A DNA stretch of 40,816 nt from a virus (lineage: Duplodnaviria > Heunggongvirae > Uroviricota > Caudoviricetes). The position numbers and the translations under genes were made by a program. The stretch covers positions 1 through 40,816 of the IMG/VR virus record IMGVR_UViG_2563366884_000001; one strand, written 5' to 3'. The notes under the pieces were generated by a model, which did no database searches, was not told the origin of the DNA, and saw only the letters and a program-made list of their open reading frames with translations. Each line of letters starts with the position of its first letter. Position 1 is the first letter of the stretch. This document shows positions 30,616 through 40,816 of the stretch, in pieces.

Positions 30616-31992
30616 TTGGCTACATGGCAACAGGCTGGTAATTCAGGCGCGCTTCTTGCCGGGTTAGGCGGCATGAACTCCAACGCTCCAAGAGCAAGTG
30701 ATGCAGACGCCACGCTTGCATACATTCGACAGAATAACGAGATGGAGCGTTCAGGACGTAATAACGTTGGCTTGCAGGCTTTACAGGGCATTTCATCTGT
30801 CATGGATATGTATAAGCAGATGGATCAGCAGAAGCGACAGCAAGAGTTTCAGCAGGCTTATGCTGATGCATATACATCTGGTGACCGCGATGCAATGCGA
30901 AAGCTGGCATCACAGTATCCTGAGCAGCTTGACGCTGTAAGAAACGGCATGAAATTTGTCGATGAAGACCAGCGTTCCACTGTCGGTACACTGGCAGCAA
31001 GTGCCAGACTCGCAGCTTCATCTCCAGAAGCCATGATGTCATGGTTGCAGAACAACTCATCTGAGCTTACTCGTGCCGGAGTAGACCCTCTGGATGTGGC
31101 GAAAATGTATCAGCAAAATCCACAAGGTTTCACAGAGTTTGTTGATCACCTTGGAATGGCTGCACTTGGTCCGATTGATTACTTCAATGTTCAGGACAAG
31201 ATAGCTGGTCGTGAGATTGACCGAGGCAGACTGGCAGAGACAATCCGCAGCAATCAGGCTGGCGAGGCGCTAACAGCGCGTGGTCAGAATATCACGATGC
31301 GCGGTCAGGATTTATCGATGCAGAGAGCATCAATGAAAGGGGCGGTTGGGAATAATGAGCGTACAGTTCAGTTAGCAGATGGCAGAACTGTAACGGTAGG
31401 CGGGAAGCTTCACGGCGCTGGGGCTAATGCGTTCTACGAAGGTATCGACAACGAGGGGAATATGGTTCGCGTTCCTGCTGGTTCTATTGCCGCTCCGGCT
31501 ACATCGGCAGCAAGCGCGCAGAATTACGCAATGAAGAAAGATCTTGATGCAATTTCTGGTGCATCAATTGACGATCTTGGCTTCATGACTGGCATTACAG
31601 GCTCTTCAGGTTCTCCTGCTCTTGGTGCAGATATTCGTAGCCGTGCATCTGGTGGTGATCAGAGGAAACTATACAACGCTGCACAGCGAATCCAAGGAAA
31701 GATGCAGAATCAGGGCATTGCAGCAGCCAGAGACATGGGGGCATCCGGTATCAACACCGTTGCAGAAGCAAAGATGTATTTTCAAGGTATGCCACAGGTT
31801 GATTTCTCAAGCCCTGAAGCACTGCAACAATCAATGCGCGACATTCAGCAATATACCGACAATTACAACCAGCAATATAACGTTAATGTCGGTAATGGCG
31901 GGAAGAAATCATCAAGGCAACAGCCAGCTACTCAGCAATCAGCAGGAGGTAGCTACACGTCAAAATCAGGCATTCAATTTACGGTGGAATGA
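30616..31992 (+). CDS. Ejection (DNA-transfer) protein, P22 gp20 analogue (TTG start)
   Basis: GGAGGT SD 5 nt upstream of TTG; size and position equivalent to P22 gene 20. Confidence 0.55.
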
Positions 31993-33830
31993 TGAAAGTA
32001 ACTGCAAACGGTAAGACATTTACCTTCCCTGATGGTACGAGCACGGAAGATATTGGCACCGCCATTGATGAGTATTTTGCTGGTCAGGCTGTTCAGCAAC
32101 AAACAGTTAATCAGGCCAATAATGCACCAACACGGGAAGAACCATCATTGATGCAACAAGCTGGCGATTGGCTCACTGGTGGTCAAAGTGCAGGGCAAAT
32201 TGCAGAACAGGCTGGTCGTGGTCTGGTAAACATACCATTTGACGTATTACAGGGCGGCGCAAGTCTGATTAATGCAATCAGTCAGGGGCTTGGTGGCCCC
32301 AAGGTTTTGGATGATGTTTATCGTCCAGTAGACAGACCGACAGACCCCTACGCTCAAGCTGGAGAAACAATTGGCGGGTATTTAGTTCCAGGAGTTGGAA
32401 CGGCAGGAAGCATGGCTATTGGATCACTGGCAGAGGCCGCAAATCAGAAAGGTGATTTCGCACAAAATGCAGCTAAAAATGCCGGAGTTAACCTTGCCGC
32501 TCAGGGTGTTCTTTCCGCAGCAGCAAAGGGAATAGGGCGTGGAATAACGGCTATAAAAGGTGATATTGCGCCAGAAGTGGCAAAGAAAATTGCCACATCA
32601 GAATCGATGGGCGTGACACCAATGACATCTGATGTTATCCCGCCGAAAAATGCTTTCACTCGCGGACTTACTCAAGATGCTGAGGGGGCTTTGCTCGGGA
32701 CAGGCTCAAAGCGAGCGGAGCAATATGCAACGCGTAGTAAGCTGGTAAGCAATTATTTTGACCGTTTTGGTGAGTACAACCCTGATGATGTGGTGAGATC
32801 TCTGACCACCACGTTAAGGGGACGGAAGGATGCCGCTGGCGCTGTTATCAATGACGTCACCAATAAAATGGGTAATGCCGCAGTTGATACCACAAATACC
32901 ATGAATGCTCTGAATACAGCGATCGCAAGACAGGAACGGCTTGGGACTTCTGCCAATCAAAACCTGCTTACATCCTTGCGTAACCTACGTGAAGAATTAG
33001 CAAACCCTGCAACTGATTTGGATGTTACGTTTGATCTCTTGCGCCAGCACAGAACAGCATTTAGATCTAATGTTCAGGGAGATGCCATGGTCTTCCCCAA
33101 CCAGGCAAAAGCAGCTACCAATATGGTAGAGAATGCAATGTCAAAAGACCTTCGTAACGCAGTTGCCAAAAACCTCGGTGCTTCAGACGCAGCAAAATAC
33201 CTTAAAGCAAATTCCGATTATGCAAACGTTTATAATAAGGTGCTTAATAAAAACATTGCTAACAAGCTCAACAAGGCAAGCAGTGAAGCCAGTCCTGAAC
33301 TTATAAATACCGTTGTATTAAGCAGAAAACCATCTGACGTGAAACGAATCTGGAGCGCACTTGATGATAAAGGGAAAGATGCTATGCGTGCAGCTTACGT
33401 CAGCAAAATAGCGGAAAAGGCCGGTGACTCTCCAGCCAAGTTCATCACTGAAGTTAATAAGCTGAAATCTCAGTCAGGCGGTGAAATTTACAACACTATT
33501 TTTTCTGGAAAGCACATGAAAGAACTTGATGCTCTTCATGAAGTTCTACAGCAAGCAGCAAGATCAGACACCGCAAATGTAGTAACTCAGACGGGGCAAT
33601 CGCAAGCCAACAGGATAAGGACGATTGGCGCAACTACGACTCTTGGCGTATCAATGGGGCTTGAGGCTGGTTTCGGTGCAATGATGCGCTTGTATGAATC
33701 CAAAGCAGCAAGGAATGCGCTCTTACGTCTGGCAAACACTAAAGCTGGAACGCCAGCTTATGAAAGAGCGCTAAATCAGGCGGCTACTGCCGTGCGCCCG
33801 CTCTTAGTTAACGAAGCTACCCGGCAGTAG
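31989..33830 (+). CDS. Ejection (DNA-transfer) protein, P22 gp16 analogue (613 aa)
   Basis: Size and position equivalent to P22 gene 16; last gene of the co-directional virion block before the accessory island. Confidence 0.6.
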
Positions 33831-33852
33831 CACTGTAAGCCAAGGACGGCAT

Positions 33853-34335
33853 TTATTTTATAGTTTTTATGAATTCTTTATTAAATCCCTTCGCTTCTCC
33901 GGGGTATCTTCCGAAGACAATTTTTATAAAAACAGAAAAAATAAAGATAGCAACGCTTAACAACAATTGCAGTATCATTGGAACCCAAAGAACTACAGGC
34001 TCTATATTCATGAAACCAAATATTCTTCCGGCGATCATGGCGAAGTACCACACTGTTATCAGCAAACTTAGTGGCATATGAATTACTGATATTACCAATC
34101 CAAGAGCATCAGTAATTCTGTTTTCAAATTTTTCAGGGGAAAACTTTTCTTTAAGGTAATTCAGTGCGCAGGCCTCATTCTCTGGATTTTCAGCATTTTT
34201 CCCTATAGCAATAGAAATCTCAGATATCCTTGATTCAATTCTTTTACGTTTAATAAAACTAGAAAAAAAGAACCACGCAATCTGCAACCCTATCCCCAGA
34301 AATAGAGTTGCGGCAACTAGCACAGCGTAACTCAT
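33853..34335 (-). CDS. Multi-pass membrane protein (160 aa), low-GC moron at the sieA-equivalent locus
   Basis: TAAGGAGGT SD before Met at 34335; three or four hydrophobic helices; markedly AT-rich codon usage compared with flanking phage genes. Confidence 0.6.
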
Positions 34336-34377
34336 AGAATCAGACACACCAACCTCCTTAGTTTTGCGCAGGATACC

Positions 34378-34743
34378 ATGAAAAAAGTTAACATTGGAAA
34401 CGTACCAAAGATGCTCGTTCCGCTCTTTGAGAGCGGTACAATTGTGTTTTGTAGAGACTTTCCAGAATGGCAACGCCTGCATCAAAAACTTGGCGTTGAC
34501 GTGCATGACTCGGACGCCAACGGAGCGTCTCATACAATGAGTAGCGAGAATGGTGTTTTGCATGTGATAGGCGTGTTCAATGGCAAACTATCTACTATTG
34601 CCCATGAGTGCGCTCACATGGCATTCGATATCTGCTCAAGGGTAGGTGTTGATGTTGAACCAGGAAGAGCCAACGAGACTTACTGCTACTTAATGAGCAG
34701 GCTTGTTGAGTTCTGCGAGCGACATATCAAAAAGCCGGAGTGA
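34378..34743 (+). CDS. Small HExxH-motif protein (121 aa), putative minimal zinc metallopeptidase
   Basis: [11 protein letters not shown] contains an HExxH motif; divergent from the membrane-protein gene (42 bp apart); stop codon sits inside a hairpin. Confidence 0.5.
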
Positions 34744-34749
34744 CCCGGC
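34733..34749. terminator. Putative bidirectional terminator hairpin between convergent genes
   Basis: GCCGG-AGTGAC-CCGGC flanked by AAAAA upstream and T-rich sequence downstream; contains the stop codon of the HExxH gene. Confidence 0.4.
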
Positions 34750-34756
34750 TTGATTA

Positions 34757-34936
34757 TTACTTTTTGCTGTCTGGAGTTCGCTTATCCAATACCCAGCCAT
34801 GACCTGGCTTTGTTGTTGGTGGAAGCCTTTCGTTGTCCTTGACGGTTGCAAAATTGTCTTTCTTACCGCCGCGTGGGCCAACTTCTTGGTATATTCCGCC
34901 GTTTTTTCCTGTGTTTTCACCTGGTTTTTTCGCCAT
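34757..34936 (-). CDS. YjzC-like small protein (59 aa)
   Basis: KPGENTGKNGGIYQEVGPRGG…LPPTTKPGHGW fits the YjzC-like pattern (KPGE…G.Y.E.G…P.T…W); GAGGT SD; own sigma70-like promoter (TTGACT…AATATT) at ~34950..35010. Confidence 0.5.
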   Translation of the reverse strand: MAKKPGENTGKNGGIYQEVGPRGGKKDNFATVKDNERLPPTTKPGHGWVLDKRTPDSKK

Positions 34937-35026: not shown

Positions 35027-35050
35027 AACCCACCTTCAGGTGGGTTTTTT
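35027..35050 (+). terminator. Terminator hairpin overlapping the 3' end of mnt
   Basis: AACCCACC-TTCA-GGTGGGTT perfect stem followed by TTTTTT on the plus strand; the mnt stop codon lies in the loop. Confidence 0.55.
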
Positions 35051-35287
35051 GTACAAATCCTTCAGCGTATCAAACACCATCTTCTTAACAAGCTCTGACT
35101 GCTCATCAGCGATGCGTTCCGCATCGTCTCGATAGCCTGAAATTTTGGATGGCTTTGATACAGCATCAGTCACTATCTGAACTAATTCTGAATTAAGAGA
35201 GCGGCCATTGGATTTGGCTCGCTGTTTTAGTTTTTCCTTTAATTCGTAAGGTAGCCGCAGATTAAATTGCGGGTCATCTCTTCCCAT
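35036..35287 (-). CDS. mnt: Mnt repressor, P22-type ribbon-helix-helix protein (83 aa)
   Basis: MGRDDPQFNLRLPYELKEKLKQRAKSNGRSLNSELVQIVTDAVSKPS…GYRDDAERIADEQSELVKKMVFDTLKDLYKK matches P22 Mnt as I recall it. Confidence 0.85.
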   Translation of the reverse strand: MGRDDPQFNLRLPYELKEKLKQRAKSNGRSLNSELVQIVTDAVSKPSKISGYRDDAERIADEQSELVKKMVFDTLKDLYKKPT

Positions 35288-35350
35288 TCTTGATGCCTCG
35301 CTTTTGTGAGTGGATCGGCATCTTATTATCTGCTGGTTGCATCCTCAATA

Positions 35351-35365
35351 AGACCACAGTGGTCT
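35351..35365. promoter_or_regulatory. Mnt operator-like perfect palindrome AGACCACAGTGGTCT
   Basis: 15-bp perfect inverted repeat in the mnt–tailspike intergenic region, similar to the P22 Omnt core (GTCCAC.GTGGAC). Confidence 0.55.
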
Positions 35366-35433
35366 CTTTGTTTGATTAATAATGCATCACTGTGGCAATG
35401 CTGCGGCGATTCCTTGTATCTGGAGCAAATTAA

Positions 35434-38379
35434 ATGACAGACATTACAGCCAATGTTGTAGTGAGTATGCCTTCGCAACTCTTCACTATGGCGCGTTCTT
35501 TTAAAGCCGTAGCCAATGGCAAAATTTATATCGGTAAAATTGACACTGACCCGGTAAATCCTGAAAACCAGATTCAGGTTTATGTAGAGAACGAAGACGG
35601 TTCTCACATTCCTGTTTCGCAACCAATAATCATTAACGCTGCTGGATATCCGGTATATAACGGACAGATTGCCAAATTCGTTACCGTGCAAGGCCATTCT
35701 ATGGCTGTTTATGATGCGTATGGTGCGCAGCAGTTCTATTTTCCTAATGTGCTGAAGTATGATCCTGATCAGTTACGGCAGCAATTAGAAGACCCAGATG
35801 GAGCGAATAAATACCCAAAACTTCAGATAGCAAGATGGAGAGACAGTTATGATGTAAGAGGTTGGGGGGCTATTGGTGATGGTGTTCATGATGACACATC
35901 AGCTCTATCAGAATTACTTTCTGTTGCAACAGGTGGTGAAAAGATAGATGGGCGAGGGCTTACTTTTAAAGTATCAACTCTTCCAGATGTCAGTCGATTT
36001 AAAAATGCTCGTTTTTTATTTGAGAGAATACCGGGTCAGCCTCTTTTTTATGCTTCTGAAGATTTTATCCAGGGAGAGTTATTTAAAATTACAGATACAC
36101 CGTGGTACAACGCCTGGACGCAGGATAAAACGTTTGTATATGACAATGTCATCTATGCGCCTTTTATGGCTGGAGACCGCCATGGTGTAAATAACCTCCA
36201 TGTTGCATGGGTTCGCTCAGGAGATGACGGGAAGACCTGGACAACGCCGGAATGGCTTACAGATTTACATGAAAACTATCCCACAGTTAACTATCACTGC
36301 ATGAGTATGGGGGTTGTCAGAAATCGCCTTTTTGCTGTAATTGAGACGCGGACCGTGAGCGGAAATAAACTGCAGGTTGCAGAGTTGTGGGATCGCCCAA
36401 TGAGTCGCAGCCTTCGCGTTTATGGTGGTATAACGAAAGCAGCAAATCAGCAAGTCGCTTATATTCGCATTACTGATCACGGATTATTTGCTGGTGATTT
36501 TGTCAACTTCTCAAACTCTGGTGTTACAGGTGTTACCGGGAATATGACGGTGACTACTGTTATTGATAAAAATACTTTTACAGTTACGACGCAAAATACC
36601 CAGGATGTGGATCAGAATAACGAGGGTAGATACTGGAGTTTTGGTACATCATTTCACTCGTCACCATGGAGAAAAACCAGTCTTGGAACTATTCCTTCTT
36701 TTGTTGACGGAAGCACTCCTGTTACTGAGATTCACAGTTTTGCGACGATTAGCGATAACAGTTTTGCTGTTGGCTACCATAATGGTGATATTGATCCACG
36801 CGAGCTTGGGATACTCTATTTCTCTGATGCTTTCGGTTCTCCTGGTAGCTTTGTTCGCAGACGCATACCTGCAGAATATGAGGCGAATGCATCTGAGCCA
36901 TGTGTAAAATATTATGATGGCATTCTGTATCTGACGACCAGGGGGACATTAAGTACTCAACCCGGTAGTTCATTGCACAGAAGCTCTGATTTAGGTACAT
37001 CATGGAATTCTCTTCGCTTCCCAAATAATGTTCATCACTCAAACCTTCCTTTTGCCAAAGTTGGCGATGAGCTGATTATTTTTGGCAGTGAGCGCGCATT
37101 TGGTGAGTGGGAAGGAGGAGAACCTGATAACCGTTATGCAGGAAATTATCCAAGAACATTTATGACCAGAGTTAACGTCAATGAGTGGAGTCTGGATAAT
37201 GTAGAGTGGGTTAATGTTACTGATCAGATTTATCAGGGCGGAATAGTTAACTCTGCGGTTGGTGTTGGTTCAGTTTGTATCAAAGACAACTGGCTGTACT
37301 ACATTTTCGGTGGGGAAGACTTTCTAAACCCATGGAGCATAGGGGATAACAACAGAAAATATCCTTATGTTCACGATGGTCACCCGGCTGATTTGTATTG
37401 TTTCAGGGTGAAAATTAAACAGGAAGAATTTGTTTCAAGGGATTTTGTCTACGGAGCCACTCCTAACAGAACGCTTCCTACTTTTATGTCGACGTCAGGC
37501 GTGAGGACGGTTCCTGTACCCGTTGATTTCACAGATGATGTTGCCGTCCAGTCACTGACTGTCCATGCAGGTACATCAGGACAAGTTCGCGCGGAAGTCA
37601 AACTTGAGGGTAATTACGCCATTATTGCGAAGAAAGTACCGTCTGATGATGTTACCGCTCAGAGATTAATCGTTAGCGGAGGTGAAACAACGTCTTCAGC
37701 AGATGGTGCAATGATAACGTTGCATGGTTCCGGAAGCAGTACTCCACGTCGCGCGGTATATAACGCACTCGAACATCTTTTTGAGAACGGAGATGTTAAA
37801 CCTTATCTTGATAATGTAAATGCTCTTGGTGGTCCGGGAAACAGGTTCTCGACAGTTTATCTTGGCTCCAATCCTGTGATTACCAGTGACGGAACATTAA
37901 AGACAGAGCCGGTCTCTCCTGACGAAGCATTGCTGGATGCCTGGGGTGACGTCAGGTATATCGCTTATAAATGGCTGAACGCTGTCGCTATAAAGGGGGA
38001 AGAAGGGGCGAGGATACATCATGGTGTAATCGCGCAGCAACTTCGTGATGTTCTTATTTCTCACGGACTCATGGAAGAAGAAAGCACAACATGCCGCTAT
38101 GCCTTTCTTTGCTATGACGATTATCCCGCAGTATATGATGACGTCATTACTGGCCAAAGGGAAATGCCGCTGACTGATAATGACGGGAGCATCATTGTTG
38201 ATGAGGATGATAATCCAGTGATGGTAATGGAAGACATCATTGAGCGCGTTGAAATAACGCCAGCAGGATCTAGATGGGGGGTCAGACCTGATCTCTTATT
38301 CTATATCGAGGCGGCATGGCAGCGCAGAGAAATAGAAAGAATAAAAGCTAGGTTAGACTTAATAGAAGGGAAGCACTAA
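35434..38379 (+). CDS. Tailspike: P22-type N-terminal head-binding domain fused to Asp-box sialidase-like beta-propeller and C-terminal intramolecular-chaperone-like domain (981 aa); putative K1 endosialidase
   Basis: N-terminus [47 protein letters not shown]… matches the P22 tailspike head-binding domain; Asp boxes SGDDGKTW and SSDLGTSW; long C-terminal extension. Confidence 0.75.
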
Positions 38380-38520
38380 ATGTTTCGTTGGCGTCAAAAA
38401 TATGAACTGCTCACATAAAGAAGTAAGTACATTGGCAAAAAATATTGACGTCAACGAAATTAAATATAAAACATCATGCAGACATATTACCAATATTAAT
38501 ATAAGGTAATAAAAATATAA

Positions 38521-38560
38521 TTTACAAAAAAGCCCGTTGGAAGCGACGGGCATTAACCGC
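38521..38560 (-). terminator. Putative terminator hairpin in the AT-rich right-end region
   Basis: Minus strand GCCCGT-N8-ACGGGC followed by TTTTTT. Confidence 0.35.
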
Positions 38561-38803
38561 GGTAATGGATAAATTATTAATATTTTTAGATTGTGAACGA
38601 TATCATATTGTGCGGAAGTAGTGAAGTAACCATGTAAAATGATTGTTTCATAGCCTATGAGACACACAAGGCTTTGTGCTCTTCGATAGTTGTTAAGGCG
38701 GATCACTCTACCTTCTCATCAAGCCAATCCGCCCACCACTGCATCATTTCTCTGCGCTTATCGAGATACTGAGCATGGTTGTAAATTCAACTAACCAAGT
38801 CCG

Positions 38804-38844
38804 TTGACAAAAAATTAGCGCAAGAGGACAAAAAATCACCTTGC
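38804..38844 (-). promoter_or_regulatory. sib: sib / tI-like retroregulator hairpin (lambda-type) on the P-arm side of att
   Basis: GACAAAAAATTAGCGCAAGAGGACAAAAAATCACCTTGCGCTAATGCTCTG closely matches the lambda sib/tI region as I recall it; hairpin GCGCAAG…CTTGCGC with a T run on the minus strand. Confidence 0.6.
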
Positions 38845-38995
38845 GCTAATGCTCTGCCTCAGGTCACTAATACTATCTAAGTAGTTGATTCATAGTGACT
38901 GGATATGTTGTGTTTTGTAGTATTATGCAGTCTATTATTTAGACTAAATCTTTCATAACATATTGATATTTACAGTGTTTTCTGTTTCTCGTTCA

Positions 38996-39010
38996 GCTTT
39001 TTTATACTAA
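38996..39010. repeat. attR: attR core GCTTTTTTATACTAA, preceded by a lambda-like P arm (~38850..38995)
   Basis: Second exact copy of the 15-bp core; the upstream P arm contains Int arm-type sites (AGGTCACTAA, CATAGTGACTGG). Confidence 0.9.
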
Positions 39011-39100
39011 CTTGAGCGAAACGGGAAGGTAAAAAGACAAAAAGTTGTTTTTAATACCTTTAAGTGATACCAGATGGCATTGCGCCATCTGGCAGAGTGA

Positions 39101-39577
39101 TTAACTAAACATCGCAGTAATCGAGGCACTCGCCAGAGAGTGAAAATGAACGTTAAACCCGACCATCGCGCCGCTGGCACCTTCATCGACATCAATACGT
39201 TCTACATCCAGCGCGTGAACGGTAAAAATGTAGCGATGGGTTTCGCCTTTCGGCGGCGCTGCGCCATCGTACCCGGTTTTACCAAAGTCGGTACGCGTCT
39301 GCAAAACGCCGTCTGGCATAGCTACCAGACCAGAGCCAAACCCTTGCGGTAATACGCGGGTATCAGCGGGTAAATTAACAACTACCCAGTGCCACCAGCC
39401 GGAGCCGGTTGGCGCATCCGGGTCATAGCAGGTGACAACAAAACTTTTCGTTCCCGCAGGAACATCATCCCACGCCAGATGCGGTGAAATATTATCGCCA
39501 TCGTAACCCATGCCGTTAAAGACATGACGATGCGGCAGCTTATCGCCATCGCGCAGATCGTTACTGATGAGTTTCAT
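39101..39577 (-). CDS. ybhB: YbhB, PEBP-family protein (host gene flanking lambda attB)
   Basis: 158-aa ORF matching E. coli YbhB as I recall it; position on the far side of the att core from ybhC. Confidence 0.85.
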   Translation of the reverse strand: MKLISNDLRDGDKLPHRHVFNGMGYDGDNISPHLAWDDVPAGTKSFVVTCYDPDAPTGSGWWHWVVVNLPADTRVLPQGFGSGLVAMPDGVLQTRTDFGKTGYDGAAPPKGETHRYIFTVHALDVERIDVDEGASGAMVGFNVHFHSLASASITAMFS

Positions 39578-39685
39578 TAGAATGCCTCCGGGAAACCTCG
39601 GCCTTCAGACCGGGGAGGAAAGGAGGCGGTTTTCCGACTAACTGTACTTTGCATAATCACATTTTCCTCTTTAGTATGTGAACAC

Positions 39686-40816
39686 ATGAAACGCGCATAT
39701 AAATACCGGTTTTACCCGACAACTGAGCAGGCTGAGCTTTTAGCTCAGACGTTTGGCTGTGTGCGCTTCGTCTACAATTCCATCCTTCGTTGGCGTACCG
39801 ATGCGTACTACGAGCGAAAAGAAAAGATCGGTTATCTACAGGCCAACGCTCGCCTTACGGCGCTCAAAAAAGAGCCTGAATACATATGGCTGAATGATGT
39901 TTCCTGCGTTCCCCTCCAGCAGTCGTTGCGCCACCAACAAGCCGCCTTTGCTAACTTCTTTGCCGGACGAGCTGCATATCCGGCTTTCAAAAGCAAACGG
40001 CACAAACAGGTGGCTGAGTTCACTGCCAGCGCGTTTAAACACCGTGACGGCGAGTTGTATATAGCAAAGAGCAAGTCGCCGCTGGATGTTCGCTGGAGTC
40101 GAGAATTACCATCTGCGCCGTCAACCGTTACCATTTCCAGAGATAGCGCTGGCAGGTACTTTGTTTCCTGCCTGTGTGAGTTTGAACCTGTATCAATGCC
40201 TGTTACCGCTAAAACGGTCGGCATTGATGTGGGCTTAAAAGATTTATTCGTCACCGATACCGGATTCAAAACCGACAATCCCCGCCACACCGCTAAATAT
40301 GCGAAGCGATTAACGCTGCTACAGCGACGTTTAAGCAGGAAGCAAAAAGGCTCAAGAAACCGAATTAAAGCCCGCTTAAAGGTCGCCCGACTCCACGCGA
40401 AAATCGCCGATTGCCGGATGGACAATCTGCACAAGTTGTCCCGCAAACTGATTAACGAAAACCAAGTTGTTTGCGTCGAATCCCTCAAGGTGAAAAACAT
40501 GATCCGCAACCCGAAGCTGTCTAAAGCAATAGCTGACGCAGGCTGGAGCGAACTTGTTCGCCAGCTCCAGTACAAAGGCAAATGGGCCGGGCGGTCAGTG
40601 GTCGCCATTGACCAGTATTTACCGTCCTCAAAATGCTGTAGTTGCTGCGGTTTCACCATGCAAAAAATGCCTCTTAATGTTCGTAAATGGCACTGCCCTG
40701 AATGCGGCGCAGACCATGATCGCGACATTAACGCGGCACGTAATATTAAAGCTGCCGGGCTGGCAGTGTTAGCCCACGGAGAGCCTGTAAACCCTGAATC
40801 GCAGCACGCGGCTTAG
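39686..40816 (+). CDS. tnpB: TnpB (IS200/IS605 OrfB-family RNA-guided nuclease-like protein), 376 aa, no tnpA partner in window
   Basis: Typical OrfB N-terminus (MKRAYKYRFYPT…), RuvC-like acidic residues and C-terminal zinc finger (CxxC…CxxC); stop codon is the last three bases of the window. Confidence 0.8.
   Translation: MKRAYKYRFYPTTEQAELLAQTFGCVRFVYNSILRWRTDAYYERKEKIGYLQANARLTALKKEPEYIWLNDVSCVPLQQSLRHQQAAFANFFAGRAAYPAFKSKRHKQVAEFTASAFKHRDGELYIAKSKSPLDVRWSRELPSAPSTVTISRDSAGRYFVSCLCEFEPVSMPVTAKTVGIDVGLKDLFVTDTGFKTDNPRHTAKYAKRLTLLQRRLSRKQKGSRNRIKARLKVARLHAKIADCRMDNLHKLSRKLINENQVVCVESLKVKNMIRNPKLSKAIADAGWSELVRQLQYKGKWAGRSVVAIDQYLPSSKCCSCCGFTMQKMPLNVRKWHCPECGADHDRDINAARNIKAAGLAVLAHGEPVNPESQHAA

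Follow-up and report, generated by a model that had tools for sequence, protein, structure and literature searches.

The minus-strand gene at 33853..34347 of the window (the whole stretch of 40,816 nucleotides that we analysed) appears to be a functional type A sieA, carried by a P22-like prophage that targets the K1 capsule and serving the same function as SieA of phage P22; we would put the probability of this reading at about 0.92. The P22-like function is assigned because the protein is 92% identical to P22 SieA and its signals are conserved. We regard this as a correct annotation, that of an ordinary P22 sieA in an E. coli K1 prophage, and not as a discovery; sieA is already known from P22-like prophages of E. 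coli, where types A and B have been reported at the same locus (Leavitt et al. 2024, PMC10883804).

Identity with P22 SieA and choice of start codon

When the window protein was compared by tblastn with 50,697 phage records, it matched P22 SieA at 92.1% identity over 164/164 amino acids with an E value of 1e-72. There were 41 matches, all of them to Salmonella P22-like phages at 90-95% identity, and because every sieA record in the phage collection was of this kind, the exact allele of the window was seen only in bacterial chromosomes. The PHROG family 7745, 'superinfection exclusion SieA-like', covered residues 1-164 of 164 (E 7e-109), and in a large protein collection the precomputed Pfam family PF26849 (SIEA) is assigned to close relatives of the protein. 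Our own Pfam-A search of SieA gave nothing but sub-threshold noise (Kri1, DUF6161, DUF485), because the version searched did not contain PF26849; NCBIfam and PADLOC, neither of which has a SieA model, gave no match for sieA or its neighbours. The original prediction had proposed a SieA-like membrane protein, to be checked by sequence comparison with SieA; that comparison, by tblastn and PHROG, led to P22 SieA, and the full-length identity disposes of its hedge that the protein might be an analogue or some other membrane effector. Judged by sequence, the gene is a true sieA orthologue, not an analogue.

The window and P22 proteins differ by 12 substitutions (F26L, S30N, I37L, I44V, E53K, C60Y, A61V, K73R, V85I, M91I, V132I and K153N), which are mostly conservative and of which six lie in the cytoplasmic loop. 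The 12 non-synonymous and nine synonymous differences correspond to a dN/dS of 0.36 by the Nei-Gojobori method, and sieA is evidently under purifying selection. The similarity extends beyond the coding sequence, the DNA being about 97% identical to that of P22 from the mnt terminator through sieA, upstream region included. The gene and its signals are as follows.

33853..34347, minus strand: sieA coding sequence, type A; 164 codons from GTG 34347, plus the stop codon TAA at 33853-33855
34352..34360, minus strand (reading 34360-34352): Shine-Dalgarno sequence TAAGGAGGT, read from the sequence and identical in P22
34378..34408, minus strand: PsieA equivalent, putative promoter; 31/31 bases identical to P22 PsieA (BK000583 13861..13891)

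The start codon that had been proposed, ATG 34335, opens a 160-amino acid frame that runs to the stop codon at 33853-33855 and is real and in frame with the longer one given above. The Shine-Dalgarno sequence TAAGGAGGT assigned to that ATG is indeed present, but the assignment does not hold, since the AGGAGG core lies 17 nt from the ATG and 5 nt from the in-frame GTG 34347. Both the P22 annotation (BK000583 13336..13830) and the PGAP annotation in E. coli, which gives the same 495-nt coding sequence, start at the GTG and yield 164 amino acids. In an alignment with eight homologues that are 55-84% identical to the window SieA, the N-terminal pattern M-S/T-D/E-S was kept in all eight; at residue 5, two had Ile and one had Phe in place of Met, so that a start at codon 5 is impossible in these three. 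Given the Shine-Dalgarno spacing, the P22 and PGAP annotations and the conserved N-terminus, we prefer the 164-amino acid form, with GTG 34347 as the most likely start; the ATG, probably not the start, was set aside on account of the spacing and the N-terminal conservation. For P22 itself the start codon has been described as uncertain, the protein being given as '162- or 164-amino acid' (PMC10883804). A mechanically called frame of 236 amino acids at 33853..34563 was discarded as an artefact that extends upstream into sequence antisense to the neighbouring gene; among database entries for SieA (proteins P0001-P0004), several with 177-209 amino acids appear to be over-extended in the same way. 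The coding sequence has a GC content of 35.6% against 47.2% for the whole window (local profile 0.36-0.37), which agrees with its earlier description as AT-rich. We consider the open reading frame to be real and far beyond what chance would give, because of the full-length 92% identity to a characterised protein and the dN/dS of 0.36.

Locus, putative promoter and carrier prophage

The neighbours of sieA that are needed to describe its locus are listed here in order along the window.

30616..31992, plus strand: gene 20 homologue, ejection protein of 458 amino acids; 61% identical to P22 gp20, Pfam Inj_translocase E 4e-72
31989..33830, plus strand: gene 16 homologue, ejection protein of 613 amino acids; 75% identical to P22 gp16
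34378..34743, plus strand: ORF121, 121 codons, equivalent to HK620 hkcC; divergent from sieA, with the two start codons 30 bp apart
35036..35433 (region): mnt, 83 amino acids, with Arc and Repressor_Mnt domains
35434..38379, plus strand: tailspike gene, identified by Pfam domains
39101..39577, minus strand: host ybhB, PEBP family, at the right end of the prophage
39686..40816: IS605-family TnpB/InsQ gene, running off the window end

The original prediction had the gene transcribed against the late operon in the position of P22 sieA, and both statements stand: sieA is on the minus strand and is flanked by the homologues of gene 20, gene 16 and the tailspike gene on the plus strand, and it is convergent with gene 16, ending 22 bp beyond the gene 16 stop codon, a spacing equal to that in P22. 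The order of gene 16, sieA, the 121-codon frame on the late strand, an orf59a homologue and mnt is also that of P22. The window prophage differs from P22 in that arc and ant are absent and the tailspike gene follows mnt directly. A palindrome, AGACCACAGTGGTCT, at 35351-35365 occupies the place of the P22 Mnt operator, GGTCCACCGTGGACC; a promoter that leads directly into the tailspike gene may thus be under Mnt control.

Transcription of sieA would come from the putative PsieA, whose promoter function is assigned from the P22 annotation and from a published construct in which 85 bp of upstream DNA sufficed for exclusion by P22 sieA (PMC10883804). In the window, 84/85 of the bases upstream of the sieA start match P22, the single mismatch being at 34367. 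A scan for the sigma-70 consensus gave no call in the PsieA region. The P22 mnt terminator has its counterpart in the bidirectional hairpin at 34732-34751, and therefore sieA is not simply read through from mnt.

PsieA lies inside the 5' end of ORF121, which is 99.2% identical to HK620 hkcC and 120/121 identical to the corresponding sequence of P22, where the reference records annotate no gene; its dN/dS relative to P22 is 0.05. More distant homologues, at 27-40% identity, occur in phages L, epsilon34, ST64T and mEp044 and in one Pseudomonas phage, and an H76-E77-x-x-H80 motif, N99-E100 and four cysteines are invariant in fifteen homologues. The ORF121 model (pLDDT 88.4) consists of a beta-sheet followed by two helices that bear the H76-E77-x-x-H80, N99-E100 and cysteine residues, and the protein gave weak sequence matches to the active-site region of thermolysin (E 0.09-0.66). 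As a reasonable but unproven suggestion, ORF121 may be a minimal zinc metallopeptidase. When the literature was searched for hkcC, only acronyms of unrelated meaning came up.

The window is an essentially complete, K1-specific P22-like prophage of E. coli, similar to CUS-3 and HK620. Its virion module is closest to those of HK620, Sf6 and CUS-3. In its tailspike the P22 head-binding domain is joined to a K1 endosialidase, made up of beta-propeller, beta-barrel and tailspike domains, and to an S74 intramolecular chaperone; on account of the K1 endosialidase we regard the prophage as CUS-3-like in host range and receptor specificity. The likeness to CUS-3 does not extend to sieA: CUS-3 was present in the phage collection and yet absent from the SieA tblastn matches, and therefore lacks a type A sieA, whereas the window prophage carries one. 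Positions 33700-34800 of the window match the chromosome of E. coli CUVET21-PYO5 with 100% identity, and there the element adjoins ybhB and bioA, the lambda attachment region. At the right end of the prophage, within 38380..40816, there is an AT-rich stretch (38400-39150, 32-40% GC) followed by ybhB; this end is assigned to the neighbourhood of lambda attB because bioA follows in the matching genome. No tRNA genes were found within the window.

The allele group, defined by at least 95% nucleotide identity, was present in 35/5426 complete E. coli genomes, or about 0.6%. An E. coli copy that is 99.8% identical in nucleotide sequence is named 'superinfection exclusion protein A' in RefSeq. The naming is inconsistent, the identical protein WP_001519614.1 being a 'hypothetical protein' in the same database, a label that the allele group often bears there. 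The identical SieA sequence has been kept in several lineages of E. coli, one occurrence being in a deleted prophage remnant. This remnant, in E. coli Res13-Lact-ER02-39 (NZ_CP062895.1 1856357-1865035; L008), belongs to a group of pig E. coli isolates; in it the order runs from a repressor gene, directly adjoining a truncated gene 20, through gene 16 to the identical sieA, and upstream of sieA genes for a Panacea-domain protein and a ClpP-like protease stand in place of hkcC.

Predicted membrane topology and proposed mode of exclusion

Three hydrophobic segments, at about residues 8-28, 81-105 and 118-146, were found with Kyte-Doolittle hydropathy in 19-residue windows at a threshold of at least 1.6. 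They and the conserved motifs between and after them are located as follows.

34264..34326, minus strand: transmembrane segment 1, about residues 8-28, from hydropathy and charge counts, within AlphaFold2 helix 2-52; KRKR follows, on the cytoplasmic side
34105..34146, minus strand: cytoplasmic motif, residues 68-81, leading into segment 2, from alignments; N76, R77 and D80 fully or almost invariant throughout the wider SIEA family
34033..34107, minus strand: transmembrane segment 2, about residues 81-105, from hydropathy, within AlphaFold2 helix 74-109
33910..33996, minus strand: transmembrane segment 3, about residues 118-146, from hydropathy and AlphaFold2; invariant W121 at its periplasmic end
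33877..33915, minus strand: C-terminal cytoplasmic motif FxRYPxEAxxFNK, residues 145-157, from the sequence, conserved in alignments

The number of hydrophobic helices, earlier given as three or four, is thus three and not four, both by hydropathy, the topology check that had been suggested, and in an AlphaFold2 model built with nine homologues, which has helices at 2-52, 74-109 and 117-145. Three transmembrane segments are also predicted for P22 SieA, and the FxRYPxEAxxFNK motif (P22 residues 145-157) has been described for all SieA types (PMC10883804). Positive charge is concentrated in the predicted cytoplasmic loop, with KRKR after segment 1, and in the C-terminal tail. With 164 amino acids, three predicted transmembrane segments and no N-terminal extension, the protein is of type A, and the alignments showed all the residues that are invariant in the SIEA family to be intact in it. 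The quality of the model is only moderate (pLDDT 76.8, pTM 0.59). A profile search of the PDB with SieA found no relative (best E 0.51) and neither did Foldseek with the model, for which the best match was TolQ/R with an E value of 5 and a probability of 0.08; since the model is moderate and no PDB match was significant, the structure lends the mechanism no support. We expect that the window SieA should be located in the inner membrane, as the FLAG-tagged P22 protein is, which fractionates only with that membrane (PMC10883804).

The published experiments with P22 SieA describe a strong and specific effect. P22 sieA in single copy on the chromosome, with 85 bp of DNA upstream, lowered P22 plating by a factor of at least 10^7 and lysogenisation 10^5-fold and abolished the K+ efflux that accompanies DNA entry; exclusion was limited to P22-like phages, and in the E. 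coli K1 strain EV36 CUS-3 was excluded to 10^-8 or less (PMC10883804). For escape from SieA, as many as three C-terminal changes in the ejection proteins were needed, among gp16 G532W and P546S and gp20 T338I, T341I, A348T and G350D, and the ejection proteins of HK620 conferred partial resistance (PMC10883804). The authors favour an interference of SieA with how the gp20/gp16 conduit is assembled or works at the inner membrane, and raise as an alternative that SieA occludes a host factor such as YajC (PMC10883804).

Carried over to the window, these results suggest the following sequence of events. In the lysogen, sieA would be expressed from its own weak promoter, against late transcription, and the 164-residue protein would insert in the inner membrane with its N-terminus outside and its 50-residue loop and C-terminal tail inside. 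There it would keep the DNA of superinfecting P22-like phages from crossing the inner membrane, most likely by disturbing how the trans-envelope conduit formed by gp20 and gp16 is put together or works. We infer both that the window allele behaves like that of P22 and that SieA contacts gp16 and gp20 directly; in this way, acting at or close to the gp16/gp20 conduit, the window SieA should stop P22-like phages at the inner membrane from injecting their DNA. The resident gp16 and gp20 are themselves of the P22 type and keep the wild-type residue at 5/6 of the escape positions: the equivalents of T338, T341, A348 and G350 in gp20 and of G532 in gp16 are all kept, and P546 of gp16 is replaced by Thr. 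The lysogen should therefore exclude phages of its own kind. The presence of sieA would explain why lysogens of this K1-specific prophage should resist superinfection by CUS-3-like and other P22-like phages, an immunity of practical relevance where K1 E. coli are treated with phages or typed by them.

The same exclusion could arise by another mechanism, in which SieA masks or sequesters a host inner-membrane factor, for which YajC has been suggested, without any contact with the ejection proteins; we hold this to be unlikely, while giving it more weight than the other alternatives considered here. It was raised by the authors of the P22 study themselves, and it would explain how very different SieA types can exclude phages with very different gp16 and gp20 proteins. 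In addition, the SIEA-invariant residues N76, R77, D80, R147, P149 and A152 are placed on the cytoplasmic face, away from the periplasmic conduit, and distant SIEA members occur outside P22-like prophages; both observations fit a partner on the host side at least as well as one on the phage side. However, the escape mutations map to gp16 and gp20, the HK620 ejection proteins give partial resistance, and exclusion is saturable at high multiplicity of infection, all of which speak against it (PMC10883804). On a yajC mutant the triple escape mutants continue to fail and so do not bypass YajC, a finding that decides neither way (Table 2 of PMC10883804).

A different objection is that the window SieA, assigned above as functional, is inactive or changed in specificity, owing to the 12 substitutions or to poor expression in E. 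coli. In its favour are the 12/164 residues that differ from P22, with six of them in the cytoplasmic loop, the 'hypothetical protein' name of the identical protein in RefSeq, and the co-resident gp16, whose divergent patch falls exactly on SieA-escape positions, a hint of local co-evolution. Yet the frame, start codon, Shine-Dalgarno sequence and putative promoter are intact, the dN/dS is 0.36 with all family-invariant residues kept, and several lineages of E. coli have retained the identical sequence. Type B SieA, with just 24% identity to that of P22, excludes the same range of phages, and P22 SieA is active in E. coli (PMC10883804). We consider loss or change of function very improbable on these grounds. 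As for an unrelated small membrane protein in the sieA slot, such as a holin-like protein, a toxin or a transporter fragment, it might be suggested by the empty results from Pfam (in a version without PF26849), NCBIfam and PADLOC, but it is already refuted by the full-length 92% identity to SieA and the membership in PHROG 7745, and we give it next to no credence.

In comparison with known systems, the window protein shares with P22 SieA its length of 164 amino acids, the layout of three transmembrane segments, the FxRYPxEAxxFNK motif, the Shine-Dalgarno sequence and the 31-nt sequence of the putative PsieA, as well as its place between gene 16 and mnt, in antisense to the late operon. It differs from P22 SieA in its 12 substitutions and in its carrier host, E. 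coli and not Salmonella, and the phage differs from P22 in having a K1 endosialidase tailspike and in lacking arc and ant. Type B SieA, from prophage HS1 of E. coli HS, and type C SieA, from prophages of Providencia, Proteus and Morganella, belong to the same family and occupy the same locus in P22-like prophages, type B with the exclusion spectrum of P22 SieA; both have 30-40 extra N-terminal residues with an additional transmembrane segment (PMC10883804), which the window SieA lacks. HK97 gp15, Sie2009 of Lactococcus phage Tuc2009 and Ltp of Streptococcus phage TP-J34 are membrane proteins that stop DNA entry after adsorption and for which, as for SieA, escape maps to DNA-conduit proteins, but they act on long-tailed phages through the tape-measure protein and not on the podovirus conduit of gp7, gp20 and gp16 (PMC10883804). 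In the searches run, no sequence relationship was detected between the window SieA and HK97 gp15, Sie2009, Ltp or T4 Imm. The last of these is an injection-blocking phage membrane protein. P22 SieB is an abortive-infection system that acts after DNA entry, is encoded in the early region and is not known to be related to SieA in sequence or mechanism. It is the second superinfection-exclusion gene of the phage family that carries SieA (PMC10883804).

Divergence of gp16 and the wider SIEA family

Over the C-terminal half of gp16, identity to P22 in 20-residue windows was 70-100%, except in a trough of 45-60% at P22 residues about 533-566, which correspond to residues about 537-570 of the window protein (33597..33698). 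The trough starts one residue after G532, which is conserved (G536 in the window), and includes P546 (T550 in the window), the site of the escape allele P546S. It may be the trace of an arms race between SieA and gp16, or simply of mosaicism. A local co-evolution of sieA and gene 16 seems to us quite improbable. In a first look at phage gp16, the C-terminal variants occurred in phages both with and without sieA. The published work reports that SieA tolerates very different gp16 proteins and that P546S of gp16 alone gave no escape (PMC10883804). If the arms race were real, the phage could have partial resistance to type A SieA, and its own SieA, with the 12 substitutions, could be tuned so as to restore self-exclusion; if the two genes had co-evolved, they would offer a natural handle on the contact surface between SieA and the conduit. 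The variation of gp16 around the escape sites could guide work on how SieA recognises the DNA-delivery conduit.

A SIEA profile search of 1.84 billion cluster representatives recovered, at E values up to 1e-3, 85 clusters at 50% identity; among the proteins recovered, P0014-P0016 and P0019 have N-terminal extensions like those of types B and C. In their alignment the common core consists of N76, W121 and P149, which are invariant, and R77, D80, R147 and A152, which are nearly so. The wider set is made up as follows.

L003 8001-8600, L005 8001-8522 and L006 5942-6460: loci of SIEA family members in the wider set
P0014-P0097: proteins of the wider set

Members were found at the early/integrase end of a Pseudomonas prophage, at a chromosomal site adjoining a DDE transposase, and in a Methylococcales locus from a metagenome-assembled genome, beside ParE-type toxin-antitoxin genes. 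Because of these other contexts the family is not confined to the slot between gene 16 and gene 9 of P22-like prophages, and it is much wider than the three described types. SIEA, a widespread membrane module, may block injection by other types of phage. Two members, read from their sequences, are fusions, P0048 with a trypsin-like domain and P0032 with a J-domain.
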